Shown one piece after another: positions 46,673 through 60,160 of a DNA stretch of 64,000 nt. Below the pieces are notes generated by a model. The model was not told where the DNA came from. It did no database searches and saw only the letters and a list, made by a program, of their open reading frames with translations. Source of the stretch: Lachnospiraceae bacterium (GTDB lineage: Bacteria; Bacillota; Clostridia; Lachnospirales; Lachnospiraceae); contig SVEG01000008.1 of NCBI GenBank assembly GCA_015057505.1, positions 8,682-72,681 on the forward strand, in the 5' to 3' direction. Positions within the stretch are counted from its first letter, which is position 1, and the number at the start of each line of letters is the position of its first letter. Both the position numbers and the translations under genes were made by a program.

Positions 46673-49348
46673 TTACTTTGTACTGTAATATGATATTCCT
46701 ATAGATTCTATGCCCGAATTGCATGCGCTTGTAAAAGAAGCCTTTTGCATAATGACTCTCTCAAATGGAATACACTTCAGAACCTCTTCCTTTATCCATT
46801 CCTGCTGTTTTACACTACAGCCTACATGAGTAATAACGACAACATCAGCACTTATTTTTCGTTTATCTTTAAGATGCCAGTGTATTCCCTGTCTCCATGC
46901 GTGCTCTACACTTCCTCCGAGAAGTCCCACACAGACTGCTCTTCCCTGTTTCATTCTTACCATGGGATGCAACTTAAATATACTGCATGCCTTGGCCACA
47001 ACACCTCTCATACGACCACCGCGACTGAATATTTCCGCGCCCGGCAAAACAAATCTTGTCTGAATCCTTTTTTTGATTTTTTCAATAGAAGCAATAATTT
47101 CATCCGCATCCTTGCCCTCTGATGCAAGTCTTGCCGCATATAATGCAATAAGTCCCTGTCCGCATGATATTTGTCCCGAATCCACTATACGCACATGATC
47201 AAAGCCTTTCGCTGCAGCAACAGCCGTATTGTAACTGACCCCCGCATTGGCAGACAATGATATATGTATAACGCTTTCCGCCTGTATAAGTGTCTCAGCA
47301 AAGAAATCCTCATATTCTTCTATTGTAACGCCATCGGCATATGCCTTACTGCTTACAGAAGAAATATACTGTCCCAAACTATCAGAATCAATCTCTTTAG
47401 TATCGGCAAATCTACCATGCGGTGTTTTAACATACAAATACATAAGTCGCATATCATATTTATCAATCAGTTCAGCCGGAAGATCGCAGGTACAATCTGT
47501 AGTAATATATATCTTCCGGCGTTTTTTGCCGGAACGCTCCTGCATTCTGCCAAGCTCTGTTGTTTCCGTATATTCCGACTCCCTGTATTCCACAAGTTCC
47601 TCGGGCATAAATTTTAAAACCTCTGCCTCAAGTACCCTTCCCTTGATAGGCTTTTCAACGTATCCATCAAAACCGTGCTTAAAGAATTCTTCTCTTGCTT
47701 CTACCATCGCATTGGCAGTAACAACAATTACCGGTGTCTCCCTGCAAAGGCCGTTTTCCTGTACGCGAAGCTCCTTAAGAGTATCCACACCACTCATACC
47801 GGGCATAAGGTAATCCATTAAAATGACGTTATAGTACTTTTTCTTTGTCATTTCCAGACACTTACTGCCACTATTGGCAATATCCACCTGAACCTTGGTT
47901 CCCTGCAAAAGCCTGCTAAGCAAAAGTGAATTCATTGTATTGTCGTCAACAACAAGCACTCTGGCCTCAGGTGCTTCAAATAACGGCTTGTATTGTTCAC
48001 CGTCAAGTGCCTTCCTGTTGAAAAGATTAACTTCTCCTATCGGTGTTCTATCAACAATCTCCTGCTTAAACCTTACTGTAAATGTACTTCCCTTAGTATA
48101 TATACTATCTACTGTAATCTCTCCGTCAATCAAATCAACAAGGTGTTTGGTAATAGCAAGACCCAAGCCACTTCCGCCGATTCTTCTGTGCGCACTCTCG
48201 TCAGCTCTGTTGAAATAATCATAAATATGGCCTACATCTTCTTTACGAATTCCTATTCCCGTATCAGTAACCATAACGCTTAACATGATTTCATTTCCGC
48301 TACACTTTTCGCCATGCACGGACAAGGTAACAGAACCCTCCTCAGTGTATTTTACGGCATTATCAAGAATATTTAAAAATATCTGTTTTAAGCGTTTTTC
48401 ATCACCCAGCAATGAAGTAGGAAGATTTTTATCTATGTCAAGATAAAGCATAAGCTTTTTCTTTTCCATCCTTGCACGAATCATTTCCACTAAATCACCG
48501 AACAAATCCACCATCTTATATTCCAGCGGAAGAATTCGCATCATCTTCATCTCCATCTGCGACAAATCAAGGATATCATTAACCTGATTAAGAAGCATCG
48601 TACTTGCAAGCTGGATATCATGAGCGCATTCCTTAGTCTGTGCATCTGCATCTGAACGAAGAATCATCTCGTTAAGACCTATAATCGTATTAATGGGTGT
48701 TCTGATTTCGTGACTCATATTTGCAAAAAAAATGTTTTTTGCATTACTTGTCTGCTCAAGTTCTTCCTTTTGGCTGATATTAAGCTTGTGCTCTTCCTCA
48801 AAAGCAAGCAAATGTAACTTCAATATGATTCCGCCAACGAGCCCCGCAACAACAAGTGAAAAATACGAATCTATATAGATAGCCTTCTGCGACGGCATGG
48901 TTGCAACAGTCTCAGGAAAAACATAAGCCAAAATATACGTTGCCGCATAAGACAAAAGGCATATAGCCAGATAAAACCAAAGCTTTTTACCGGAAAACAT
49001 TACAAAAATATACATTATTCCCAAAGTCAACCATATCGAAGCTCCACTTACAGCTCCACCTTTTGCGTAGAATAATTCCGGGAACACTATAACAATAACA
49101 ACAATCCCCAAAAGTCCCGCAGCCAAATCATACTTATGATATTTAAATGCCGCAAACTGACATACTATCATCGTAATAAGCATCAGAATAATAAACGGAA
49201 GTATATCCTTTGCCGCATGCATAACCACAAATATCTCTACAATACCGACAATCGCTGCCAGACCGCCCACAAGAACAATCGTTCTAAGCATTCTTTCGCG
49301 AAGATCGCAATCCTCTCCGCGCACCAATCGGACTATTTTTTTCCACAT
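46673..49348 (-). CDS. Membrane hybrid histidine kinase - receiver - DegV domain fusion
   Basis: About six TM segments. HisKA (SHEIRTPINTIIG), HATPase (DTGIGI, GGSGLGLAI), REC (VLVVDDN...MDYLMPGMSG...VTANA...KP). The C-terminal 280 aa is colinear with the DegV family (YITTDCTCDLP..., HISLSANAGVSYNTA, IVDSGQISCGQG, SRGGRM). Confidence 0.85.
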   Translation of the reverse strand: MWKKIVRLVRGEDCDLRERMLRTIVLVGGLAAIVGIVEIFVVMHAAKDILPFIILMLITMIVCQFAAFKYHKYDLAAGLLGIVVIVIVFPELFYAKGGAVSGASIWLTLGIMYIFVMFSGKKLWFYLAICLLSYAATYILAYVFPETVATMPSQKAIYIDSYFSLVVAGLVGGIILKLHLLAFEEEHKLNISQKEELEQTSNAKNIFFANMSHEIRTPINTIIGLNEMILRSDADAQTKECAHDIQLASTMLLNQVNDILDLSQMEMKMMRILPLEYKMVDLFGDLVEMIRARMEKKKLMLYLDIDKNLPTSLLGDEKRLKQIFLNILDNAVKYTEEGSVTLSVHGEKCSGNEIMLSVMVTDTGIGIRKEDVGHIYDYFNRADESAHRRIGGSGLGLAITKHLVDLIDGEITVDSIYTKGSTFTVRFKQEIVDRTPIGEVNLFNRKALDGEQYKPLFEAPEARVLVVDDNTMNSLLLSRLLQGTKVQVDIANSGSKCLEMTKKKYYNVILMDYLMPGMSGVDTLKELRVQENGLCRETPVIVVTANAMVEAREEFFKHGFDGYVEKPIKGRVLEAEVLKFMPEELVEYRESEYTETTELGRMQERSGKKRRKIYITTDCTCDLPAELIDKYDMRLMYLYVKTPHGRFADTKEIDSDSLGQYISSVSSKAYADGVTIEEYEDFFAETLIQAESVIHISLSANAGVSYNTAVAAAKGFDHVRIVDSGQISCGQGLIALYAARLASEGKDADEIIASIEKIKKRIQTRFVLPGAEIFSRGGRMRGVVAKACSIFKLHPMVRMKQGRAVCVGLLGGSVEHAWRQGIHWHLKDKRKISADVVVITHVGCSVKQQEWIKEEVLKCIPFERVIMQKASFTSACNSGIESIGISYYSTK

Positions 49349-49351
49349 ACA

Positions 49352-52108
49352 CTATCTCTCCCTGCCTGACAGTTTATTCTTAATCCGTACCACATTCTCA
49401 ACCGCCGAAATATAATCCGACATTTCTATCTTCCTATATATCGGCTCAAGCAATTCCTTAAGTTCTTTTCCTCCGTACTGATACTTTTGGAGTTCCTTAA
49501 TATAGCCGGCAAGCTTTTCACCGTCCAACAAATACATTACCTGTTCCATCTCTGAAACAATTCTTTCAAATTCACTTTCCTCAAGCACAGGCAGCTTAGA
49601 CATTTCCTCCCGTCTGTCGCAGGTACTTTCTGCATTCGGATTTATGATTTTACTCTCACGAAGTTTCTCGAAGAAATCGTTATAAGCTTTCATAAAAGCT
49701 TCATGATTTTCCAAAATATATTCGATGAGTTCTTTTTTACCTGCCTGCTCAAGAAGTGCCGCGCGTTCCGATATTACATCAGCACCGATGCTTCTCATTG
49801 CCCCCTTTATTCCATGAACTGCTATCGTATAATTCTTCCAATCCTGTTTTTCAAAAGACTGCTCGGCAAATTTACCTATTTCATCACCATCTGCACAATA
49901 GCCCTTCAATACGTTAAAAAAGTTCTCTTCACCGTTACAATAAAAAATTCCCTTTGAGACATCTATTCCGAGTGCAGCAAACGATTCATCCTCCTTTGCG
50001 ACATTACCATCTTCTTTCTTACTGTCATCAATTTTATCCTCACCGCAAATAATTCTCTCCGGTATAATATGCCTTTTTAAAACTCTTTCAAGAACCGATC
50101 TTTCTATGGGCTTCTCCAAGAAATCATCAAAACCCTCGTTAATCATCATCTCTCTGGTTCCTGCAACTGCATTGGCCGTAAGTGCAATAATCGGCACTCT
50201 CTGATAATATGTGCCCGGTATTCTTCTGATACGGTGCATCGTCTCCACACCGTCCATTTCCGGCATCATATGATCCATAAATACAAAATCATAATCTGTC
50301 GCCATAATCTTCTCAAGAGCCTCTGCCCCACTCATTGCAGAAGTCACATTTATCTTATAATTAGAAAGAAGTCCCTCTATTACTCTGAGATTCATCCTAT
50401 TATCATCTACAACAAGAACATGCACACCTTTTGTTACAAATCGTCCTGACTTTTCATTTTTCATCTTACCCGGTGTGTCATAAAGACCGTTAAGTACTCT
50501 TACAATTGTCTGGATATAAAAAGGCTTAACAATCTTTAATATATTCTTGTTATCTACATCTTTTTCCTCAAAACGGTCAAGTATAACTACAAGCTTTGTC
50601 CTGTCGGACAACTCATCAAAATACTGTTTTTCAGCGCTGTATTCTGCCATACTGATGAAAACATGTGAAAAATCGTCAATCTTTTCTCTTCGCTGTAATT
50701 CTGCAAAATTCTTGCATATATGGCACTTTCCTCTAAGCTGGTCAACCATATTCATAATACTGTTGGAATATTCATCCCTGATTGCCACCATATCAAACTG
50801 TTCCATATCGATATATACGGCAACATTAACTTCTGCCTTATTATCAATTGCCGCTATGGGAGTTTCATCAAGTACCTTCTGCGGTACTACAAATTTGATT
50901 GTGGTTCCTCGTCCCGTTCTGCTCTTAACAGTTATAACACCACCCATTTTATGTACAAGAGCATGCGAAATTGCAAGTCCGAGTCCAAGACCACCCTCCT
51001 GGCGTTTTCTGCTGGCATCAACCTGATTGAAGCTTACAAACAACTGCTCAAGTCCGCTTTCATCCATACCGATTCCTGAATCCTTAACAGAAACCATAAG
51101 GTTTATTCCATAAGCTTCTTTTCTGTAACCTACTGAAATACTTACAAAACCAGAATCTGTAAACTTGATGGCATTGTCCACAAAATTCATTATTACTCTT
51201 CTGATTTTCTTCTCATCACCTTGCAATACGCTCGGAAGAGTTGCATCACAGTCTACAATAAGTTCTAGCTGCTTATCATTTTTTCTTGCGGTAGCCATAT
51301 TAATAACATCATTTATGGTTGAAGTAATGTTATACGCCTCTTCCTCAAGTGCAATATTCCCCGACTGCAATTCGGAAAAGTCCAAAATATCACTTACCGC
51401 CGTCGTAAGATTACGTCCCGCAAGCTGAATATTTACTATATCTTCTCTTATATGAGCCGGCAAATCTTCCTTCAAAATTATCTCACTGATTCCGCATATA
51501 GTATTAATCGGCGTTCTGATTTCATGATTTACATTCGCAAGAAAATCATCTTTCCTGTTTTCTACTTCTTTTAATTCTTCAATTGCTCTCAAAAGACTTT
51601 TACTACCGTCACTGTTTCTTTTTACCCATACATACATTACATATTCAAGCAAAAACAAATTACCGATTTGTGATAAAAACAACAAAATATCATCCGTCGT
51701 AGCAAGCGGTACGTCCTTAAGAATAAAACCATGTACAAAAAAAATTATCACAGTTGAAAATACAGTGTAATAGATAACCGTACTTTCTCCATACAATCCT
51801 ACAAACACAACAAATGCCGCAAATACAGGAAGTACCAATGAAATCCCATCCGAACAAAGAGTATATACTACGACTCCCATCTGCATAATCGCAACAGATA
51901 CCTTGACTCTGAACAAATAATCTCTGCATTTGCTTACACATATAAGCCATGCAAAAAAAAGACCTGCTATCAACACATACTGAACCCAGCTGTCCCAGCC
52001 ACGTCTTACGGCTGCCATAATCATATAAATCGCATATATCGAATATATGAACATCAGGAAAACCTCTGTTTTTCTTCTGTTGTCATTATCGTAAATAAGT
52101 TTTTCCAT
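49352..52108 (-). CDS. Membrane hybrid histidine kinase with pseudo-receiver, receiver and Hpt domains
   Basis: Multi-TM N-terminus. NHEIRTPINTICG, DSGIGM, GGLGLGLAI. REC (VLVVDDNRMN..MDHMMPEMDG..LTANA). Hpt (IAVHGIKGAMRSIG). ATG at 52108 after GGAGG. Confidence 0.88.
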   Translation of the reverse strand: MEKLIYDNDNRRKTEVFLMFIYSIYAIYMIMAAVRRGWDSWVQYVLIAGLFFAWLICVSKCRDYLFRVKVSVAIMQMGVVVYTLCSDGISLVLPVFAAFVVFVGLYGESTVIYYTVFSTVIIFFVHGFILKDVPLATTDDILLFLSQIGNLFLLEYVMYVWVKRNSDGSKSLLRAIEELKEVENRKDDFLANVNHEIRTPINTICGISEIILKEDLPAHIREDIVNIQLAGRNLTTAVSDILDFSELQSGNIALEEEAYNITSTINDVINMATARKNDKQLELIVDCDATLPSVLQGDEKKIRRVIMNFVDNAIKFTDSGFVSISVGYRKEAYGINLMVSVKDSGIGMDESGLEQLFVSFNQVDASRKRQEGGLGLGLAISHALVHKMGGVITVKSRTGRGTTIKFVVPQKVLDETPIAAIDNKAEVNVAVYIDMEQFDMVAIRDEYSNSIMNMVDQLRGKCHICKNFAELQRREKIDDFSHVFISMAEYSAEKQYFDELSDRTKLVVILDRFEEKDVDNKNILKIVKPFYIQTIVRVLNGLYDTPGKMKNEKSGRFVTKGVHVLVVDDNRMNLRVIEGLLSNYKINVTSAMSGAEALEKIMATDYDFVFMDHMMPEMDGVETMHRIRRIPGTYYQRVPIIALTANAVAGTREMMINEGFDDFLEKPIERSVLERVLKRHIIPERIICGEDKIDDSKKEDGNVAKEDESFAALGIDVSKGIFYCNGEENFFNVLKGYCADGDEIGKFAEQSFEKQDWKNYTIAVHGIKGAMRSIGADVISERAALLEQAGKKELIEYILENHEAFMKAYNDFFEKLRESKIINPNAESTCDRREEMSKLPVLEESEFERIVSEMEQVMYLLDGEKLAGYIKELQKYQYGGKELKELLEPIYRKIEMSDYISAVENVVRIKNKLSGRER

Positions 52109-52133
52109 ACAAAAAACCTCCTGCCATTTGCAT

Positions 52134-52167
52134 AAAAAGCATACCGGGGGCAAACCGGTATGCTTTT
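52134..52167 (-). terminator. Intrinsic (bidirectional) terminator after the MCP gene
   Basis: GCATACCGG tttgcc CCCGGTATGC flanked by A and T runs. Confidence 0.75.
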
Positions 52168-52179
52168 TGTTTATATCCC

Positions 52180-53448
52180 TTAAAGAGTTTCTTCTTTCTC
52201 AAGCTTAAACATTGAAATAAGATTACTTACTCTTGCTGCCTGATTTGTAAGTTCAACGCTTGCTGCCGCACACTCTTCACTTGTTGCTGAGTTAGTCTGT
52301 ACAACCTGTGACACCTGCTCAACAGCCTGATCAATCTGTGCTATTGCACTTGCCTGATAATTTGATGCCTCAGCAATTTCCGTAATGAGTTTTTCACTCT
52401 GTTCAACAGCCTTTGTAATCTCTTCCAGAGCCTTTGCAGTTTCGCCTGCAATTATACCGCCGGAAACAACCTTACGAATAGAATCCTCTATCATCTCTTC
52501 TGTCTCAGATGCAGCCGAAGCACTCTTTGCCGCAAGATTTCTTACTTCATCAGCTACAACCGCAAAACCTTTACCTGCTTCTCCCGCTCTTGCCGCTTCA
52601 ACTGCAGCGTTAAGTGCAAGAATATTAGTCTGGAATGCAATATCATCAATAACTTTTATAATCTTGGAAATTCTCTCGGATGAATTATTGATATCATCCA
52701 TCGCAACGATCATCTCCTGCATTTCCTTATTACCTTCTTTTACTGTTTCAATTGCTTTGCCAACCAAATCAGCGGCCGCATTAGCCTGTATGGCGTTATT
52801 TCTTGTTTTCTCTGCAACATCCACAATAGATGCCGTAATCTGCTGAATTGCACTTGCCTGCTCTGTAGAGCCTTCTGCCAAAGCTTCGCTGGCATTGGAA
52901 ACCTGACTTGCACCTACAGAAACCTGATGTGCAGCATCTTTTACATTACTAATAGCATTGCTGTTACGCTCCACCAATAATTTAAGAGCATTACCTAATG
53001 TATCATCCTCTGACTTAGGCTCAACAACCACTGTCATATCACCGTCTGCAACTTCCTGTACAACCTTTGCCTGTTCATCAATATTATCAACGATTGCCTG
53101 AATATCATTGATAAGCTTTCCAAATTCATTGCTACCCATTTTCTTAAGAGTAATATCTGTTTTACCCAACGCCAATGCACTTGATGCCTTATTAATCTCA
53201 GCAAAAGCTTTTTTGATTGTACCGAGTAGTGTAATTGCAATTCCGCTTGTACAAATTATCATAAGAATAAAGAAAAGTGCCGTTGTATATGCATATTTAC
53301 TTAAATAAGCTTCCGGATCTGCCACTATAAGCATTTTACTTGCCGACTTATAGCCAACATACAAAGACATAATCATTACTATATCAATTACAATAAAGCC
53401 AATTAACAACTGCGTTGTTATTTTCATACTTTTTGAAACAATTTTCAT
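52180..53448 (-). CDS. Methyl-accepting chemotaxis protein with minimal extracytoplasmic loop
   Basis: Two TM segments about 25 aa apart, HAMP, and the conserved signalling hairpin ([37 protein letters not shown]). Confidence 0.92.
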
Positions 53449-53454
53449 AACCTT

Positions 53455-53955
53455 TTATTCTCCTTCTTCTGCATTCTCTTCATTTGTCTGCTCTGCAACG
53501 GATAAATCTTCATCCTTAAGCAATTTGTCCGGATCAAGTAACAATTTGACACTGTCTCCGACCTTACCGATACCATACACATATCTGCTCTGTGTCTTAT
53601 CTTCGTTGCCGAGTGTCGGAGGGTCTAAAATATCCTCCTGAGTAATCTTTACAACCTCAGCCACTTTGTCAACTATAAGTCCCGCTACCGTTCCCTTTAC
53701 ATTAACAATAACAATGCAAGTTCTGTCCGTATATTCCTTTGGCTCCTGCTTGAAGCGGATTCTTACATCCATTACCGGTATAATTTTACCTCTAAGGTTA
53801 ATCAAACCTTTTATGTAATCTTCGCTCTCGGGGATCTGAGTTATTTCCTGATATACAATAATCTCATTCACATATTTAATCTCAAGTGCAAAACACTCAT
53901 TTCCCGAATAAAAGGTTACATATGTATCCTGCTGTGTTTCTGCCTGCACGCTCAT
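53455..53955 (-). CDS. cheW: Chemotaxis coupling protein CheW
   Basis: 166 aa with CheW-like pattern (GLINLRGKIIPVMDVR). Confidence 0.9.
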   Translation of the reverse strand: MSVQAETQQDTYVTFYSGNECFALEIKYVNEIIVYQEITQIPESEDYIKGLINLRGKIIPVMDVRIRFKQEPKEYTDRTCIVIVNVKGTVAGLIVDKVAEVVKITQEDILDPPTLGNEDKTQSRYVYGIGKVGDSVKLLLDPDKLLKDEDLSVAEQTNEENAEEGE

Positions 53956-53976
53956 ATATACCTTTTCCTTTCTGTT

Positions 53977-56130
53977 TTATGATTTGTATTCCACAAGTCC
54001 GTTTGCATCCAAAATAAGAGCAATGCTTCCGTCTCCAAGCTGCGTACAGCCTGATAGACCTTTTATCTTCTTGATATATTCGGGAATCGGTTTTACAACG
54101 ATTTCCTGCTTGCCCACAAGTTCATCCACAAAAAGACATAATTTCTTATCTTCCACGCTAACTACAATCAACATGCCTTCCTCGGCTTCCGGATTATATC
54201 CGTCAATCTGATAAAGCTCTCCGACACGAACTACCGGATATGCTTCCCCTCGTATCATAACGAACTCTTCTCCGCCCGGATTCTTAATAAAGACATCCTC
54301 TTTAACTCCGATAAACTCCTGCACTGCATTTGTCTCAATAACAAATGAGGATTTACCGACAGACATTACAATTCCGTCAATTATCGCAAGCGTAAGCGGT
54401 ATCTTCATAATCATGGCACTTCCCTGACCGGGAGTACTTTCTATCTCAAGTGTTCCGCCGATTGCTTTGATATTGGACACTACAACATCCATGCCTACGC
54501 CACGTCCCGAATATTCCGTAACCTGTTCTTTGGTAGAAAAACCGGGAAGCGTAATAAACTGGTATACTTCCTTATCCGTATACGCACTGTCAGGCTTGTA
54601 ATAATCAAGAAGTCCCTGCTTTCTTGCCTTGGCAATAATAGCATCCCGATTAAGACCTTTGCCGTTATCCTGCACACTAATCCAAACCTTACCGGACTCT
54701 GTCTTGGCCTTTAATGTAACCTTACCCTTCTCGGTCTTACCCTTTGCCGCACGTTCATCAGGCATCTCTATTCCGTGGTCAACAGAATTCCTTACAAGAT
54801 GCATAAGCGGGTCTGCTATATGCTCTATTACATTCTTATCAACCTCGGTCGTGTCTCCAATCATCTCAAATTCAATATCCTTACCAAGCTTTCTTGATAC
54901 ATCAAACACAATACGATTCATCTTCTGGAACGTATTCGTGAGTGCCATCATTCGCATACTCATGATTGCATTCTGAAGCTCCGTGGATATCTTTGACATC
55001 TGTCTTGCTGACTTATTAAAATTCTCAAGTGAAAGTCCCGGGACCTTAAGATCCGAGCTCTGAAGCACCATGGATTCCGCTATAACAAGCTCTCCGATCA
55101 AATCCATAAGTACATCCATCTTTTGAACATCAACACTGATAAATGTAGCTTTTTCCTGCTTTTTAGGCTTATCCTTTGCAAGCTTCTTGCCCTTACCGAC
55201 TTCCTTAGACTCAATGACAAAATCACCGGGAGCCATAGGTTTTTGCGCCTGTTTTTGGATAATCGCCTGTTCTTCCGGTGTTTTTTCAGTCTGATTACCT
55301 TCCGGCTGTTCGCCTGCAATTCTTATCTCCGTACCAAAACTGTCAAATCCCTTCTGGAACTCACTTGCGCTACACTCGTAAATATCAACCTTTTGAAGTT
55401 CATAACCTACTTGGATGAGCTCATGAAGCTTGTCCTCACTGCATTGAGCCTGTAATAAAATCTTAAAACCGTTGTCTAAGATTTCTTTCTCACTGTTCAC
55501 ATCCGAAACAATGTCTTCCGGATAATGAAGCAAATCCTCGGCAATTTCCTTAAGTGAATATACAATCTTATATGCATGTATATTCGCAAGCTGAACATCA
55601 GGATTAAAAGTCAGATAAATCTTAAAGAAATGACTTGCACTTGTTGCCATTGGCGCAATATAAAATTGCTGCGGTGCAACATACACATTCTCCTTGATAT
55701 TCTTTTCCTGCTCACCGTCACCGCTCTTTATCTTTGTCAGGAATGCATCAACTGCTGCAACAATCTCACCCGCATCACCATCAGGTGTTCCGCCGTCCTG
55801 AATCTTCATCATCTCAGACGTAATAAAATCAGCTACCTGCAAAACATGCTCAACAAGTTCAAGATGAGGCACATTTGTTGGTTTAGACTCCCTGAGATAA
55901 TAAAATACATCTTCAAGCTTATGTGATGCCTTTGTGATTTCGTCAAACATCATAACTCCCGAAGAGCCCTTTATCGTATGCATCGTACGGAATATCTCGT
56001 TAATAGCATCCTCATCAAAACACTCTTCGTCCTTCTGTTCCAGCACAATGTCCTGAAGCCTTTCAAGCAGCTGACTGTTTTCAAACAGGTATACGTCAAG
56101 CATTCCCTGCATATCAAAATCTCCTGCCAT
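53977..56130 (-). CDS. cheA: Chemotaxis histidine kinase CheA
   Basis: P1 Hpt (FRTMHTIKGSSG), HATPase (HLVRNSVDHGIE, GRGVGMDVV), C-terminal CheW-like P5 domain. Confidence 0.93.
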   Translation of the reverse strand: MAGDFDMQGMLDVYLFENSQLLERLQDIVLEQKDEECFDEDAINEIFRTMHTIKGSSGVMMFDEITKASHKLEDVFYYLRESKPTNVPHLELVEHVLQVADFITSEMMKIQDGGTPDGDAGEIVAAVDAFLTKIKSGDGEQEKNIKENVYVAPQQFYIAPMATSASHFFKIYLTFNPDVQLANIHAYKIVYSLKEIAEDLLHYPEDIVSDVNSEKEILDNGFKILLQAQCSEDKLHELIQVGYELQKVDIYECSASEFQKGFDSFGTEIRIAGEQPEGNQTEKTPEEQAIIQKQAQKPMAPGDFVIESKEVGKGKKLAKDKPKKQEKATFISVDVQKMDVLMDLIGELVIAESMVLQSSDLKVPGLSLENFNKSARQMSKISTELQNAIMSMRMMALTNTFQKMNRIVFDVSRKLGKDIEFEMIGDTTEVDKNVIEHIADPLMHLVRNSVDHGIEMPDERAAKGKTEKGKVTLKAKTESGKVWISVQDNGKGLNRDAIIAKARKQGLLDYYKPDSAYTDKEVYQFITLPGFSTKEQVTEYSGRGVGMDVVVSNIKAIGGTLEIESTPGQGSAMIMKIPLTLAIIDGIVMSVGKSSFVIETNAVQEFIGVKEDVFIKNPGGEEFVMIRGEAYPVVRVGELYQIDGYNPEAEEGMLIVVSVEDKKLCLFVDELVGKQEIVVKPIPEYIKKIKGLSGCTQLGDGSIALILDANGLVEYKS

Positions 56131-56145
56131 TTATTGCTCCTTTCT

Positions 56146-56538
56146 CTATACCAGACCGAATTTTTTTAATGCCTGTTCAAATCTTTCCTGGTCAATAGGC
56201 TTGCCCGAATAAACCGTACATCCGAGTTCAAATGCCATCTTGACATTTTGTTCATCATTAAGTGCTGTGGTCATAATCACCTTGACCGCTTTCTCCTGCG
56301 GAATATTACGTTCCTTCTCCAAATTACGAATACCCACAAGTGCCTGATATCCGTCCATAACCGGCATCATGATATCAAGACATACAAGGTCATACGGCTC
56401 GTCATCCTCAAGTGCCATCATAAACGCATCCACTGCTTCCATTCCGTCCACAGTGACATCACACTCACCATATTTTGATAAAAACCCCGCCATAAATTTT
56501 CTCGTTACAAAATCATCTTCTGCTAATAAAATCTTCAT
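56146..56538 (-). CDS. cheY: CheY-like single-domain response regulator
   Basis: 130 aa REC (ILLAEDD...CLDIMMPVMDG...TTA...KP). Confidence 0.85.
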   Translation of the reverse strand: MKILLAEDDFVTRKFMAGFLSKYGECDVTVDGMEAVDAFMMALEDDEPYDLVCLDIMMPVMDGYQALVGIRNLEKERNIPQEKAVKVIMTTALNDEQNVKMAFELGCTVYSGKPIDQERFEQALKKFGLV

Positions 56539-56558
56539 AAGTCTTTCCTCTCCACCAT

Positions 56559-57587
56559 CTACATTTTACTTAATATCGCATATGTCCGTTTAGCAACATC
56601 GGACAATTTTTCCTGGAACTCCACTGCACCGGCATCATATGCCACCTTCGGCATACCGTATACAACACAAGTCGATTCATCCTGTCCGATAGTCCTTGCT
56701 CCTGCCTTCTTCATGGTCAGAAGCCCTTTGGCTCCATCTCCTCCCATACCTGTTAATATAATACCTATTGCTTTATCTTTAGCTACTTCAGCAACCGAAG
56801 TAAATAAAACATCTACTGACGGTATATGCCCGCTGACTCTTTCACCTTTTTTAATAACAACCTGCATAACACCATTCACATTAACAAGTTGCATGTGAGC
56901 ATCACCTGCAGGAGCAAGAAGTGCCTGTCCCGGTATCACAATATCACCGTTTTTTGCCTCTTTTACCCTGATTTTACAACGCTTATCGAGTCTCTGAGCA
57001 TACATATCCGTAAATCCGGGAGGCATGTGCTGAACCATGACAATTCCAGGAATCTCCGTCCCAAATTCATTAAGTACCGCCGCAATCGCTTCCGGACCTC
57101 CTGTGGAAGCTCCAATGGCAATTACGACTTCTTTTGCCTTACCTGTAAGCGACTGCTTTGCAAACTCTATAACATTACGCTTAATTCTGCCTACTTTTGC
57201 AACAGAAGCAATTTTAATCTTTATCGGAAGTTCATTTTTAACAAATGCTTCAAGCTGTGCTACCCCTACACCAACGGGTTTCGCCACAAAATCAACAGCA
57301 CCCGCATTAAGTGCATCAAATACCCTGTTACTTAAAGTACTTATAACTATTACGGGAAGCGGATGCTGTGGCATAAGCATTTTCAAAAACTCAATACCAT
57401 CCATCTTTGGCAATTCTATATCTAAAGTCATGACATCCGGCTGATATTTTAGAATTGCATCCCTTGCTTCAAAAGGATCCTTTGCCAGAGCCACTACCTC
57501 AATCAATGGATCCTCACTCAAGCCCTGCACCAAAAGCTTCCCAAATACCATTGAATCTTCAACAACCAAAACTTTTATTCGTCGCAT
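56559..57587 (-). CDS. cheB: Protein-glutamate methylesterase CheB
   Basis: REC plus methylesterase domain (IAIGASTGGPEA, VQHMPPGFT, GMGGDGA). The ATG at 57587 is preferred over the track start at 57605. Confidence 0.9.
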   Translation of the reverse strand: MRRIKVLVVEDSMVFGKLLVQGLSEDPLIEVVALAKDPFEARDAILKYQPDVMTLDIELPKMDGIEFLKMLMPQHPLPVIVISTLSNRVFDALNAGAVDFVAKPVGVGVAQLEAFVKNELPIKIKIASVAKVGRIKRNVIEFAKQSLTGKAKEVVIAIGASTGGPEAIAAVLNEFGTEIPGIVMVQHMPPGFTDMYAQRLDKRCKIRVKEAKNGDIVIPGQALLAPAGDAHMQLVNVNGVMQVVIKKGERVSGHIPSVDVLFTSVAEVAKDKAIGIILTGMGGDGAKGLLTMKKAGARTIGQDESTCVVYGMPKVAYDAGAVEFQEKLSDVAKRTYAILSKM

Positions 57588-57620
57588 GTACTTTCGTCCT
57601 TCCATCTTAAAAGTTGTTGT

Positions 57621-58694
57621 TTAACGAAGCTGTTTTACTATCTTTTTCATAATTGAAAATATATCCGGATTAAATTTTTTACCGGAATCCATCTCCATAA
57701 TCTTCATTGCATCTTCCATACCAAACGCGGCTCTGTACGTTCTGTCCGAAGTCAACGCACAATACGCACCTGCCACGGCAACAATCTGCGCCGAAATAGG
57801 AATCTCATCTGCTTTTTTGCCTTCCGGATAACCGCTTCCGTCCCAGTTCTCATGATGATAATTGGCTATTTCCATAGACATATTAACGAAACTGTTGTAA
57901 TTGCCGAGTTCCGCAACATCCTTCATTATTCTCGCACCTATAACAGTATGCTTCTGCATAGCAGCACTTTCTTCTTCTGTTAAACTACCTTTTTTCTGCA
58001 ATATATCCGTAGGAACTGCAAGGTTTCCCAAATCACAAAGCGGTGCGGCAAGTTCTATCATATCAATATAGTTGTCAGAAATTACCGAACCGTACTTGGA
58101 CGACAGTTGCATCGCCTCTGCCAACATCCTACTGTTATAGCAAAGTCTCTCCATATATTCTTCATCATAATTGGCATTCTCTCTGGCGACACGAATAAGT
58201 GCATACAAAACACTTTTTCTTACCGCCTCCATCTGCTTCATCTGCTCACTGATTGATATCTGAAGCTGGCGGTTTGATTCAGCCATACTTCTGTTAGACT
58301 CATATAAGCGAAGATGCATCCCGACTCTTGCCTTTACAACCTCCGGAATAAAAGGTTTGGTAACATAATCGGCACCTCCGAATTCAAAGCCCTTTACAAT
58401 ATCTTCAGCATCATCATATGCCGAAATAAAAATAATCGGGATATCTCTAAGTTCTGCATCCTCCTTTATCTTCTTACACACTTCATAACCGTCCATTTCA
58501 GGCATCGCTATATCAAGAATTATCAGGTGTGGTTTTATATACTGCATCATCTTTAAGGCCTGCATACCATTCTCGGTAAGCACAGGCTGATAACCCATGT
58601 CCTCTATTATACCGCGCAAAACAAATCTGTTTGCTTCCACATCATCTACAATTAAAATACGAGAGACATCCTTGTAAGCACTGCTGTCTGCCAT
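57621..58694 (-). CDS. Response regulator with HD-GYP domain (c-di-GMP phosphodiesterase type)
   Basis: REC (ILIVDDVEANR..ILDIAMPEMDG) followed by HD-GYP (HHENWDGSGYPEG). Confidence 0.9.
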   Translation of the reverse strand: MADSSAYKDVSRILIVDDVEANRFVLRGIIEDMGYQPVLTENGMQALKMMQYIKPHLIILDIAMPEMDGYEVCKKIKEDAELRDIPIIFISAYDDAEDIVKGFEFGGADYVTKPFIPEVVKARVGMHLRLYESNRSMAESNRQLQISISEQMKQMEAVRKSVLYALIRVARENANYDEEYMERLCYNSRMLAEAMQLSSKYGSVISDNYIDMIELAAPLCDLGNLAVPTDILQKKGSLTEEESAAMQKHTVIGARIMKDVAELGNYNSFVNMSMEIANYHHENWDGSGYPEGKKADEIPISAQIVAVAGAYCALTSDRTYRAAFGMEDAMKIMEMDSGKKFNPDIFSIMKKIVKQLR

Positions 58695-58705
58695 ATGTAC
58701 CTCCA

Positions 58706-60160
58706 CTATATCTGTTGCAACGAGTTTTTAAATAATTCAAAAGCTGCAACCGCTTTCTCATAGTCCCCTTTTTGCACTGCCATCTTAAGTCTTAATGCAG
58801 CACTTTTTATCTCCCTCGGTGCTTCCTCTGCCAGCTCTTTTATTGATTCAGCAAACATTTCAGCTTTTTCCCAGTTGTCCATCTCCATACTAAGAATAAG
58901 CTTTGTCAGCTTCTTTTCCAATTCTTCAAGATTTGCCGGCTCCCCAAATATCTTTATCCCGTCCCCCGAATCATTGTTCATCAGGTTTTGTAATTTATTA
59001 ATAATGGTCTGACGTTCATCCGGTTCCGTGACATATTCCTTTAATCCGTCATGTAATTCCCTTCCTTGTATCAGATAATCTTCTTCAGGGATCTCAACCC
59101 AAATATTAAAAGAAAATACCGTCCCTTTACCGACTTCGCTGTTGACATGAATTCCTCCACCCATAAGTTCAACAAGTTCCTTGCAAATACTAAGCCCCAG
59201 TCCCGTACCTCCGTACTTTCTGGATATGGATGCATCCACCTGTGAAAAACTTTTAAAAAGCTTATCCTGATCAGCCTTGGCTATGCCAATTCCGGTATCT
59301 ATTACAACAAAAAACAGTTCTGTCTTGGCGTCCATCTGCGCCGTCTTTACAATTTCAACATGTATCTCTCCCACCGAAGTAAATTTATATGCATTGGATA
59401 TCATATTATTCAGTATCTGAACAATTCTAAGCTCATCTCCAACAACAAACTTCGGTACTTCGGGCGAAACCGTTATCGAAAACTCCAACCCTTTTTCCGT
59501 AATTCTGTTAATATGATTACTCTTAACATAATCAATCATATTACGAAATTCAAATTTGCGTTCCTCCAAAATAAACTTGCCCGCTTCCAATTTGGAAAAA
59601 TCAAGGATATTGTTAATAATTGCATTCATATCCCTACAGCCACGCTCCACAAGTGCCAGTAGTTTTAATTTATCTTCATCTGATTCACGACTTATAAGTT
59701 CTCTAGTATTACCGAGTATTCCGTTAACGGGTGTTCTAAGTTCATGCGTTACATTAGCAACAAATTCCGACTTAACCTTAAGGGCTTCCTTAGCTTCCTG
59801 TTCCGCCAAAACGAGTTTCTTCTCCAGCGAAATTCTTTTTGAGGTATCACGCGCAACACATATATATTGCATATCATACTCAAGAACCTTCACTCTCGTC
59901 TGAAAACACGTCTTATTCTTACGGTAAGCCATGCTATCATATATTTCACCAAGTGTAACATCTGAATCTTTAATGCGGACACCTTTGGAGAAAAGTCCGG
60001 GATAAACATCCGAAACCAAAGTTCCGCACAAATCTTCCTCGAATTCCGTAAGTTCCTTAGCCCTTTTATTGGCATAAACAATCATCCCGAAATCATTAAA
60101 AACCATTATCATCTCCAGAGAATTGTCTGCAGCAAATTGAAACAAATTAGCTAGTTCCAT
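58706..60160 (-). CDS. Cytoplasmic PAS histidine kinase with C-terminal His-less Hpt-like bundle
   Basis: PAS-like N-terminus. HisKA (THELRTPVNGILG). HATPase (DTGIGI, GGTGLGLSI). The C-terminal 90 aa aligns to the Hpt domains of neighbouring kinases. Confidence 0.88.
   Translation of the reverse strand: MELANLFQFAADNSLEMIMVFNDFGMIVYANKRAKELTEFEEDLCGTLVSDVYPGLFSKGVRIKDSDVTLGEIYDSMAYRKNKTCFQTRVKVLEYDMQYICVARDTSKRISLEKKLVLAEQEAKEALKVKSEFVANVTHELRTPVNGILGNTRELISRESDEDKLKLLALVERGCRDMNAIINNILDFSKLEAGKFILEERKFEFRNMIDYVKSNHINRITEKGLEFSITVSPEVPKFVVGDELRIVQILNNMISNAYKFTSVGEIHVEIVKTAQMDAKTELFFVVIDTGIGIAKADQDKLFKSFSQVDASISRKYGGTGLGLSICKELVELMGGGIHVNSEVGKGTVFSFNIWVEIPEEDYLIQGRELHDGLKEYVTEPDERQTIINKLQNLMNNDSGDGIKIFGEPANLEELEKKLTKLILSMEMDNWEKAEMFAESIKELAEEAPREIKSAALRLKMAVQKGDYEKAVAAFELFKNSLQQI

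Follow-up and report, generated by a model that had tools for sequence, protein, structure and literature searches.

The gene at 46673..49348 on the minus strand of the 64-kb window (the window being the whole stretch of DNA analyzed, 64,000 nucleotides from a gut Lachnospiraceae bacterium) encodes an 891-aa hybrid histidine kinase that ends in a full-length DegV-like domain. From the sequence comparisons described below, we propose, with a probability of roughly 0.5, that this domain is a signaling-dedicated DegV module, distinct from FakB, which modulates an Hpt-dependent phosphorelay controlling c-di-GMP. We favor a signaling role because the domain is a full-length DegV under purifying selection with a conserved, remodeled site, and because its branch has been recruited at many positions of two-component proteins. 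Further reasons are that DegV follows an HK-mid-REC-Hpt gene both when fused (65/65) and when unfused (12 loci), that kinase and receiver both keep their catalytic residues without exception, and that both operon types end in c-di-GMP enzymes. So far, the one role known for DegV proteins is that of FakB, which carries fatty acids for the Gram-positive fatty acid kinase; the proposal would assign a specific and testable function to DegV proteins of a second kind.

Domain architecture of the kinase

The gene and its parts are as follows.

46673..49348 (-): whole gene, an 891-aa hybrid histidine kinase with a C-terminal DegV-like domain (ORF, domain matches, at least 120 full-length homolog clusters)
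48779..49348 (-): N-terminal membrane region, aa 1-190, with about 5-6 predicted TM helices (hydropathy and AF2 helices)
48551..48739 (-): HisKA dimerization and phosphoacceptor domain, aa 204-266, with H213 within MSHEIRTP (Pfam, 1.3e-15)
48059..48406 (-): HATPase_c catalytic domain, aa 315-430, with N, G1, and G2 boxes intact (Pfam, 2.2e-25)
47621..47959 (-): receiver (REC, Response_reg), aa 464-576, with D468, D469, D512, and K566 (Pfam, 1e-23)
47516..47620 (-): REC-DegV linker, aa 577-611, with a basic KKRRK directly before DegV (conservation and pLDDT)
46682..47515 (-): DegV-like (EDD-fold) domain, aa 612-889, of a putative Asn-type signaling branch (Pfam, NCBIfam, AF2, Foldseek, and key-residue mapping)

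The order TM-HisKA-HATPase-REC-DegV, as described in an earlier note on this DNA, is borne out by the Pfam domains and by its recurrence among homologs. Hydropathy segments within the membrane region span residues 19-51, 53-71, 73-101, 114-132, and 156-177, and a Pfam search with aa 1-190 gave no significant family match. The phosphoacceptor H213 and the receiver residues D468, D469, D512, and K566 are each present in 120/120 aligned orthologs, and the HATPase_c residues N326, N330, D362, G364, G366, G392, G394, and G396 are invariant in the same alignment. The protein carries the H box, the N/G1/G2 boxes, and the receiver pocket of a hybrid sensor histidine kinase of the HisKA class, and Pfam detects no Hpt domain of its own. 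ShkA, GacS, and RetS are the best structural matches found by Foldseek for the N-terminal two-thirds. With the kinase core and receiver complete, the protein is predicted to autophosphorylate H213 and to pass the phosphoryl group to D512.

A separate hybrid kinase gene and a stand-alone DegV gene could have been joined by a frameshift or by misassembly, and nt 47520-47560 had been singled out beforehand as the suspect junction. This stretch corresponds to aa 597-610 and lies, in frame, within a low-confidence linker that is poorly conserved in sequence (column mean 0.54; AF2 pLDDT below 50 at aa 592-610) but conserved in length, with neither a stop nor a start codon at the junction. In distant relatives, an unfused DegV gene does immediately follow a hybrid kinase gene, and in one locus (L056) the fused gene is split into two ORFs. 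However, at least 120 independent protein clusters formed at 90% identity match this fusion protein at 100% coverage (55-93% identity; NCBI, ENA, JGI, and Logan assemblies), and the fusion recurs in 67 genome loci that stem from different MAG projects. Because of this recurrence across assemblies, we rejected an artifact, the probability of which we consider negligible, and the fusion is upheld.

The DegV domain and its head-group site

The HMM search that the earlier note had recommended matched aa 612-889 to DegV (PF02645) over nearly the whole profile (4e-38; 131.8 bits against a cutoff of 27; profile positions 1-279 of 280), and NCBIfam TIGR00762 scored 136 bits against a cutoff of 99.7. 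The peptide strings quoted in the earlier note, YITTDCTCDLP, HISLSANAGVSYNTA, IVDSGQISCGQG, SRGGRM, ACNSGIESIGISYY, and ADGVT, are all present in the translation. In the AF2 model, pLDDT is about 85-92 across aa 611-889, and Foldseek superimposes this part on 2dt8 (TM 0.88, rmsd 2.9 Å) and on the FakB1/FakB2 structures (TM 0.83-0.87); the pTM of the 891-aa model is 0.39, and its inter-domain geometry is not reliable. By profile and by predicted fold, the C-terminal domain is a full-length DegV. Its mean column conservation over 120 orthologs, 0.73 versus 0.76 for REC, indicates that the domain is under purifying selection.

DegV/FakB proteins are fatty-acid carriers, and in FakB2 the carboxylate is held by a hydrogen-bond network of Thr61, Ser93, and His266 (T62, S95, and H270 in FakB1) (PMC8892158, PMC10848957). 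The three positions are T, S, and H in all five PDB references and correspond to A671, G703, and N877 in the 891-aa protein. Among the 120 orthologs, the T61 position is A in 71, G in 29, V in 9, and P in 5; the S93 position is G in 112; and the H266 position is N in 99 and S in 14. The FakA-docking, membrane-orienting Arg (R202/R205) is replaced by G811 (G in 73, A in 20, and S in 11 orthologs), and across the whole DegV branch this position is hydrophobic or small, never Arg. Lys occupies the position of W180, the hydrophobic residue that FakB1 inserts into the membrane, which is K or R among the relatives compared. Within the set of FakB functional residues compared (T61, S93, H266, R202, R170), only the Arg latch (R170/R173), which lies over a bound fatty acid, is kept, as R779; it is Arg in 105 of the 120 orthologs, and the wider branch has 55 R and 26 K among 144 sequences.

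We rejected FakB membership given these replacements at the T61, S93, H266, and R202 positions, which are conserved in the 120 orthologs. For the same reason, fatty-acid binding, which the earlier note had carried over from the family, cannot be assumed; its observation that the TSQPS region is altered and reads ADGVT is correct. At the head-group site, the motifs A-D-x-V, G-x-S, N-G-R, and C-N-x-G replace T-S-Q-P, S-G-T, G-G-R, and H-x-G. The remodeled site is itself conserved in the 120 orthologs: D672 (105), V674 (112), G703 (112), S705 (105), R779 (105), C876 (119), N877 (99), and G879 (120). With the site so remodeled, a free fatty-acid carboxylate for presentation to FakA is unlikely as the putative ligand. 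Neither FakA nor PlsX was found among the ORFs surveyed by Pfam in the 64-kb window, and no second DegV gene lies within it. The head-group site of unfused and Hpt-linked relatives still has S/T, S, and R/K, which makes an ancestral ligand-binding capacity of the branch probable. In the ~890-aa HK-REC-DegV lineage, a comparison between 50%-identity clusters shows the T61 position varying over A/V/P/T/S and the R170 position over Y/R/F/Q/K; such drift could mean that the domain no longer binds a ligand and is just a docking module.

A DegV branch tied to phosphorelays

The architecture survey covered the 150 closest representatives of 50%-identity clusters, about 90 of which combine DegV with HK, REC, or Hpt modules in one polypeptide, in varying order. 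HK-REC-DegV is found in 61 representatives, HK-REC-DegV-Hpt and REC-DegV-Hpt in 6 each, and DegV-Hpt and DegV-5/6TM-HK-REC-Hpt in 3 each; DegV-HK and dCache-HK-REC-DegV occur as well. The characterization of DegV proteins as normally single-domain is thus true of FakB but not of this branch. Where DegV is N-terminal to the kinase core, it occupies the position in which input domains sit.

Farther out, 12 loci have a separate DegV gene (283-319 aa), not fused to a kinase, directly 3' of an HK-mid-REC-Hpt gene. Downstream sequence is available for 11 of these, and in 10 the next gene encodes a REC protein (452-502 aa, or a cut-off 266 aa); the four tested were all REC-GGDEF. At one locus (L073), an upstream pair of HK-mid-REC-Hpt and unfused DegV is followed by a second kinase gene. 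An unfused DegV without a receiver cannot be a phosphorylation-controlled output there, which favors a role as an accessory input or modulator.

Taken by sequence, these proteins form a large, coherent DegV branch that lacks the FakB/FakA-specific residues and is tied to HK-REC-Hpt phosphorelays by fusion or gene order. Its hosts are Lachnospiraceae, Oscillospiraceae, and Ruminiclostridium. Public annotation calls the ~890-aa kinases just "DegV family protein," a label that conceals both their kinase nature and their non-FakB branch. The earlier claim that the architecture is undescribed agrees with our full-text literature search (DegV/FakB in two-component or c-di-GMP contexts; Roseburia chemotaxis), which found no description of it and no DegV in a phosphorelay.

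Gene neighborhood

The genes upstream of the DegV kinase are listed from the head of the cluster.

60366-63125 (-): third hybrid HK-REC-Hpt, head of cluster
58706-60160 (-): PAS histidine kinase, head of cluster
57621..58706 (-): REC-HD-GYP response regulator, with CDLGN where canonical proteins have HDxGK
56559-57605 (-): CheB
56146-56538 (-): CheY-like REC
53977-56130 (-): CheA
53455-53955 (-): CheW
52180-53448 (-): MCP
49352..52153 (-): partner gene, a 933-aa TM-HisKA-HATPase-"mid"-REC-Hpt hybrid kinase (Pfam), 3 nt upstream of the DegV kinase

Judged by sequence, the 933-aa partner is a paralog of the DegV kinase and is translationally coupled to it. A partner HK-mid-REC-Hpt gene is the immediate upstream neighbor in 65/65 loci, with gaps of -28 to +15 nt. 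The Hpt domain of the partner spans aa 750-814 and contains AVHGIKG. Its "mid" region (aa 430-575) is conserved, has no Pfam match, and gave a probability of 0.1 when aligned with a REC profile by hhalign; a single-sequence AF2 model of the region (pLDDT 31) is too low in confidence to use. The K-P of an invariant YKPFY in this region recalls a receiver, which we note as a lead only.

The chemosensory genes (52180..57605, minus strand) share their strand with the DegV kinase and include CheA, CheW, MCP, CheY, and CheB; the same gene order is repeated in L001, L002, and 55/65 loci. CheR lies between REC-HD-GYP and CheB in L001 and L002, and no CheR homolog was found anywhere in the 64-kb window. 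Gene order suggests that the DegV-kinase gene usually closes a CheB-CheA-CheW-MCP operon that also has a REC-HD-GYP regulator, and at 8 loci a PAS-HK and a REC-HD-GYP gene are directly upstream of the kinase pair. The REC-HD-GYP regulator is likely the output of the relay, and its CDLGN in place of HDxGK makes a c-di-GMP hydrolase output uncertain. Both operon types carry c-di-GMP enzymes at their end, either HD-GYP or GGDEF (GGDEF in 4/4 tested). A simple scan detected no terminator after the DegV-kinase gene, and that the operon ends there is suggested only by divergent downstream genes in other genomes. The downstream 103-aa ORF (46336-46647) has no Pfam family, shows conservation in no genome but the closest one (L003), and was judged to be outside the system.

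Proposed role and alternatives

The DegV kinase has no Hpt of its own, and the upstream HK-REC-Hpt paralog would supply one, such that two membrane kinases may converge on a single Hpt and from there on an HD-GYP (c-di-GMP) output. Phosphotransfer from the receiver of the DegV kinase to the Hpt of its neighbor is proposed solely from gene order. The DegV-like domain appears tethered to the receiver exactly where related proteins have DegV and then Hpt, and it could serve as a regulatory module in the cytoplasm, tuning transfer from receiver to Hpt. Such tuning would most likely be set by the occupancy of the putative DegV pocket by a hydrophobic ligand.

A DegV fold could also contribute a protein-protein interface and bind no ligand at all, for example by holding the receiver beside the partner Hpt or "mid" region or by dimerizing the cytoplasmic part. 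Loss of the FakB carboxylate triad and of the FakA-docking Arg, together with the drift of site residues across the 50%-identity clusters of the ~890-aa lineage, would be in keeping with such a scaffold, and an obligate protein partner would be consistent with the invariable pairing with the HK-REC-Hpt gene (65/65). In addition, triad mutants of FakB are reported to be unstable (PMC8892158), implying that a stable, triad-less domain must have adapted to a different state. We nonetheless regard a ligand-independent scaffold as rather unlikely. Within the ortholog group, few parts of the DegV domain are better conserved than the remodeled site, which would be unexpected of a dead pocket; the S/T, S, and R/K kept by unfused and Hpt-linked relatives point to ancestral ligand binding; and the full-length fold is retained with high model confidence.

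The earlier note suggested that lipid status may be sensed by, or controlled through, the phosphorelay. With DegV as a receiver-controlled output, phosphorylation of D512 would switch DegV to bind or release a fatty acid or to hand it to FakA or the membrane, and the relay would control lipid uptake. A place C-terminal to REC is indeed the usual position of an output domain, the Arg latch R779 persists in 105/120 orthologs, and DegV/FakB proteins carry fatty acids (PMC8892158, PMC10848957). Control of this kind is nevertheless improbable, as the FakA-docking position is G/A/S in the orthologs and never Arg branch-wide, T61, S93, and H266 have become A, G, and N, and the W180 position of FakB1 is K/R. 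Moreover, DegV in relatives precedes the kinase, separates REC from Hpt, or stands alone with no REC, arrangements that do not suit an output, and the 64-kb window has no fakA, plsX, or other DegV gene among the surveyed ORFs. We give very little credence to a further reading, in which DegV binds the product of Fak, a fatty acyl-phosphate, whose phosphoryl group is exchanged directly between DegV and the neighboring receiver or Hpt, thereby reporting the activation state of exogenous fatty acids. Its sole basis is chemistry and proximity: receivers are known to accept phosphoryl groups from acyl phosphates as small-molecule donors, a fatty acyl-phosphate chemically resembles acetyl-phosphate and aspartyl-phosphate, and DegV repeatedly lies between REC and Hpt. 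Against it, the ortholog group has lost the residues that hold the carboxylate or phosphate, the FakA-docking residue is absent, and we know of no experimental precedent for such an exchange between DegV and a receiver or Hpt.

Extending our preferred reading, a signaling module acting on the relay, to the whole branch is more tentative. Asn-type DegV proteins (His266 to Asn, no FakA-docking Arg) might constitute an unrecognized class of cytoplasmic sensors of lipids or other hydrophobic ligands that gate Hpt-dependent phosphotransfer to HD-GYP/GGDEF enzymes in motile gut Clostridia, with the 891-aa protein as the fused, kinase-tethered form. If so, decisions on motility and biofilm formation would be tied through these sensors to the status of dietary, host, or membrane lipids. 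The proposal also suggests a candidate cytoplasmic input to chemosensory and c-di-GMP signaling in abundant flagellated gut commensals (Roseburia, Agathobacter, Acetatifactor).

Comparison with known systems

The DegV domain belongs to the same Pfam/TIGRFAM family, and adopts over its full length the same predicted two-lobed fold, as S. aureus FakB1/FakB2, S. pneumoniae FakB1-3, the T. thermophilus protein 2dt8, and B. subtilis DegV (3fys). With these it shares the family-wide motifs T-D-x-x-x-D-L and D-S...S-x-G-x-G and the Arg latch (R170/R173, here R779). Unlike these soluble proteins of ~280 aa, it is fused to a membrane hybrid kinase, and it differs from FakB in having A, G, and N at T61/S93/H266, G at R202/R205, K at W180 of FakB1, and no FakA nearby. 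SaeS signaling in S. aureus is affected by both fatty acids and FakA, which to our knowledge is the only described functional link between Fak/DegV and a two-component system; in contrast to the DegV kinase, that link is indirect, involves no physical fusion, and operates via canonical FakB proteins.

Hybrid histidine kinases that feed a shared Hpt include Vibrio LuxN/LuxQ/CqsS acting on LuxU, Pseudomonas GacS/RetS/LadS/PA1611 with HptB, and Caulobacter ShkA. The present system resembles them in its HisKA/HATPase core and receiver, in the several kinases encoded together, and in the Hpt available to an Hpt-less kinase. It differs in that the Hpt-less kinase is strictly paired, and by sequence translationally coupled, with an Hpt-bearing paralog, and we know of no DegV domain in any of the kinases named. 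In the H-NOX/HnoK and NosP/NahK systems, a cytoplasmic ligand-binding protein adjoins or is fused to a (hybrid) kinase that controls c-di-GMP enzymes via Hpt. A similar arrangement is seen here from the genes alone, with a DegV fold unfused beside an HK-REC-Hpt gene or fused within two-component proteins and with putative REC-HD-GYP or REC-GGDEF outputs, although the DegV/EDD fold is unrelated to the heme proteins H-NOX and NosP. EDD-fold or Dak proteins serve as co-regulators in DhaK/DhaL-DhaR of E. coli and DhaQ-DhaS of Lactococcus, providing a precedent for a small-molecule-binding protein of the EDD superfamily as a signaling input and not just an enzyme subunit. Unlike the DegV kinase, the Dha co-regulators belong to the DhaK branch and act on transcription factors rather than on a His-Asp phosphorelay.

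Architecture and fold of the DegV kinase

The DegV kinase combines a DegV-family domain with a HisKA-class hybrid kinase and is not a FakB, the fatty-acid-binding subunit of fatty acid kinase. It is encoded on the minus strand, with the following domains assigned by Pfam.

46673..49348, minus: DegV kinase gene, single uninterrupted ORF, 891 aa
aa 204-266, minus: HisKA
aa 315-430, minus: HATPase_c
aa 464-576, minus: Response_reg
aa 612-889, minus: DegV (E 4e-38, profile positions 1-279 of 280)

An earlier note had proposed this fusion from sequence, and the peptides it quoted are all present in the translated ORF. The fusion is borne out by the Pfam profile PF02645 that the note recommended (131.8 bits versus a gathering score of 27), by TIGR00762 (DegV, NCBIfam; 136 bits versus 99.7), by structural modeling, and by recurrence. 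An AlphaFold2 model based on 53 homologs gave a pLDDT of about 85-92 over aa 611-889. Using Foldseek, the modeled DegV part was superimposed on the solved DegV/FakB structures 2dt8 (TM 0.88, rmsd 2.9 Å) and FakB1/FakB2 entries (TM 0.83-0.87), in each case along the full length of the solved structure. The N-terminal two-thirds of the protein matched the kinases ShkA, GacS, and RetS; aa 1-190 contain five or six hydrophobic helices and have no Pfam family. The phosphoacceptor H213, receiver residues D468, D469, D512, and K566, and the residues of the N, G1, and G2 boxes are invariant in 120 orthologs, and judged by these residues the kinase and receiver are competent. Pfam detected no Hpt domain within the 891 aa.

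The junction queried in the note (nt 47520-47560, aa 597-610) is in frame and lies in a low-confidence, poorly conserved linker. At least 120 protein clusters (55-93% identity; NCBI, ENA, JGI, Logan) contain the same fusion with coverage of 100%, as do 67 genome loci from MAG projects unrelated to one another; this recurrence excludes an assembly or frameshift join to near certainty. At locus L056, in one Roseburia MAG, two ORFs stand in place of the fused gene, TM-HK (399 aa) and HK-REC-DegV (485 aa), probably reflecting a frameshift or a pseudogene in this assembly.

Remodeling of the fatty acid site

In FakB1, Thr62, Ser95, and His270 (T61, S93, and H266 of FakB2) hold the fatty acid carboxylate, Arg173/170 (FakB1/FakB2) forms a latch above the ligand, and Arg205/202, with Leu185/181, serves docking of the kinase partner FakA and orientation on the membrane; mutating these residues yields unstable or inactive protein (PMC8892158, PMC10848957). 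The positions were mapped by phmmer alignment to 4x9x, by comparing a clade profile with the PDB (end-to-end alignment with 2dt8, 1.7e-43, and SaFakB2 4x9x, 2.4e-40), and by a MAFFT alignment including five PDB reference sequences. The references carry T/S/R/L/R/H at six columns, except that R202 of SaFakB2 (4x9x) falls two columns off in a gapped stretch. All three mappings agree.

Table. FakB2 positions, their DegV kinase counterparts, and residue counts in 120 orthologs.
T61: A671; A71 / G29 / V9 / P5
S93: G703; G112
R170: R779; R105
R202: G811; G73 / A20 / S11
H266: N877; N99 / S14

The DegV fold is thus retained in a true family member while the FakB-specific residues are replaced; only the Arg latch survives, and identity as a FakB was rejected. 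Additionally, K786 occupies the position of W180 in FakB1, which is hydrophobic and belongs to the dynamic region that inserts into the membrane. Because D672, V674, G703, S705, G778, R779, C876, N877, and G879 are each kept by 99 or more of the 120 orthologs, the head-group site reads as remodeled rather than decayed. The whole DegV domain is as conserved as the receiver (0.73 versus 0.76). The core observation of the earlier note stands; its proposal that lipid status is sensed or controlled through this phosphorelay is weakened by the replaced FakB residues.

Genomic context

The DegV kinase gene is the last in a run of co-directional signaling genes.

60366-63125, minus: hybrid HK-REC-Hpt
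58706-60160, minus: PAS-HK
57621-58706, minus: REC-HD-GYP
52180-57605, minus: CheB, CheY-like REC, CheA, CheW, MCP
49352-52153, minus: partner kinase, 933-aa TM-HK-'mid'-REC-Hpt; the DegV kinase begins 3 nt later

The two kinases are paralogs (40% identity in the core, 41% in the receiver), and an Hpt (motif AVHGIKG) is supplied in the coupled partner. Scanning genomes with the DegV part of the orthologs gave 80 loci, nearly all from Lachnospiraceae MAGs of animal guts (Roseburia, Acetatifactor, Agathobacter, Butyribacter, Lachnobacterium, Jutongia), with a few from Oscillospiraceae or Ruminiclostridium. An HK-mid-REC-Hpt gene lies immediately 5' of the fused gene in 65/65 loci with enough upstream sequence, at a gap of -28 to +15 nt (mode +3). 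Upstream, the MCP/CheW/CheA/CheB set is found in 55 of these 65; REC-HD-GYP is directly upstream in eight, six of which have PAS-HK ahead of it. Two database contigs (L001, L002) share the gene order of the window, followed by unrelated genes downstream. Their CheR gene sits between REC-HD-GYP and CheB; no CheR methyltransferase was found anywhere in the 64-kb window, though CheB is present.

Nucleotide 58706 (minus) belongs both to the PAS-HK stop and to the GTG annotated as the start of REC-HD-GYP, and this gene pair adjoins the kinase pair at loci where Che genes are absent (L033, L034, L037, L039, L054, L056). The REC-HD-GYP regulator (57621-58706, minus) reads CDLGN where canonical HD-GYP has HDxGK and keeps HHENWDGSGYP. 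The substitution, conserved in Lachnospiraceae orthologs but replaced by HDIGK in L078 and HDVGK in L067, may denote a catalytically altered or degenerate c-di-GMP phosphodiesterase. The conserved 'mid' region of the partner kinase (~145 aa between HATPase and REC; aa 430-575, window 50429-50866, minus) recurs in all HK-REC-Hpt kinases that partner a DegV, fused or unfused. Pfam assigns it to no family, and its profile does not resemble that of REC; it contains an invariant K-P (YKPFY), an AlphaFold2 model built without an alignment gave pLDDT 31, and it may be a pseudo-receiver.

A signaling branch of DegV

With aa 600-891 as the query, an exhaustive HMMER search of 1.84 billion cluster representatives gave 5703 matches at E < 1e-3 and 183 at E < 1e-30. 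Architectures of the best 150 of the 5703 were assigned by Pfam on 20 examples and by HMMs built from the loci.

Table. Architectures among the best 150 matches.
HK-REC-DegV: 61
DegV only: 59 (39 clearly full-length)
REC-DegV: 8
HK-REC-DegV-Hpt: 6
REC-DegV-Hpt: 6
DegV-Hpt: 3 (P0226, P0216, P0261)
DegV-(5-6 TM)-HK-REC-Hpt: 3 (P0233, P0249, P0251; TM segments predicted)
DegV-HK: 1
HK-DegV-Hpt: 1
dCache-HK-REC-DegV: 1 (P0215, Pfam)

Therefore, ~60% of the nearest relatives are part of two-component proteins, in all possible orders, with DegV recurrently placed directly ahead of Hpt. P0233, P0249, and P0251 are circularly permuted, with DegV ahead of the membrane region and kinase core. Asn occupies the His266 column in 67/93 fused, 32/39 unfused, and 12/12 operon-linked unfused members, and the R202 column is never Arg across the branch, unfused members included. 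At the other head-group positions, S/T, S, and R/K are mostly retained in unfused and Hpt-linked members; they are lost in the lineage of ~890-aa HK-REC-DegV proteins nearest the query, where the residues at these positions vary from cluster to cluster. The DegV domain of the DegV kinase belongs to this branch.

In the 12 most distant scan loci, DegV is unfused (283-319 aa, 32-35% identical), and the 3' end of an HK-mid-REC-Hpt gene overlaps its gene or directly adjoins it. A REC protein gene follows directly wherever downstream sequence is present, except in the upstream pair of L073, a contig with two tandem kinase-DegV pairs, where the second kinase gene comes next. All four REC proteins tested are REC-GGDEF. 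HK-mid-REC-Hpt, unfused Asn-type DegV, and REC-GGDEF form a three-gene unit in L070-L082 (e.g., L070:225-5237, L073:2541-11713); its REC-GGDEF has a ~150-aa C-terminal extension, and a REC-HD-GYP gene also adjoins the unit in L078. The MAG JAZQLH01 carries both a fused pair (L015) and an unfused trio (L072), so the two systems are not redundant. The association of this branch with an HK-REC-Hpt relay and c-di-GMP output is thus conserved, fused or not, and its association with the relay is strict.

Proposed role

We favor the DegV-like module as an input or modulator of the Hpt phosphorelay (probability roughly 0.5). Phosphate would pass from H213 to D512 and then exchange with the Hpt of the partner kinase, which would serve the REC-HD-GYP regulator and perhaps also the receivers of the Che set. 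Placed where relatives have DegV-Hpt, the module would tune receiver-Hpt exchange through its ligand state or by docking alone. A role in docking independent of any ligand is conceivable, if rather unlikely. Fatty acid output controlled by the receiver is improbable, and input or modulation is preferred to it, because unfused members lack any receiver that could act on them, the domain lies N-terminal to the kinase in some relatives, and the residues for handing fatty acid to FakA are missing. Acyl-phosphate acting as phosphodonor seems very remote.

The input or modulator reading would find its closest likeness in H-NOX/HnoK and NosP/NahK, in which a hybrid kinase has a cytoplasmic ligand-binding protein beside it or fused to it, and c-di-GMP enzymes are reached through an Hpt relay. 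The DegV kinase may also resemble the multi-kinase networks of LuxU and HptB, where one Hpt is common to several kinases. Full-text searches turned up no paper that places DegV in two-component proteins or connects it with c-di-GMP, in line with the earlier note, which knew of no such architecture; public records label such proteins simply "DegV family (EDD domain-containing) protein". The HK-REC-DegV architecture is genuine, conserved, and so far undescribed: a hybrid kinase carrying an unusual accessory domain. The finding broadens from one fusion to a signaling-dedicated DegV branch.

Neighboring genes

Directly 3' of the DegV kinase lies a 103-aa acidic ORF (46336-46647, minus) whose own 3' end overlaps the annotated ArgRS start. 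Neither Pfam nor NCBIfam assigns it a family, and its conservation is limited to the closest genome (L003); nearby, at 46666-46638, is a promoter-like site. On the upstream side of the focus region, nt 34374-37629 and 39198-40641 hold sortase, FG-GAP repeat protein, and AraC-family regulator genes, the FG-GAP protein (418 aa) having a weak, sub-threshold dockerin-like match. An ECF-type sigma factor gene (40048-40641) overlaps a 289-aa ORF without a family, which may encode an anti-sigma factor.
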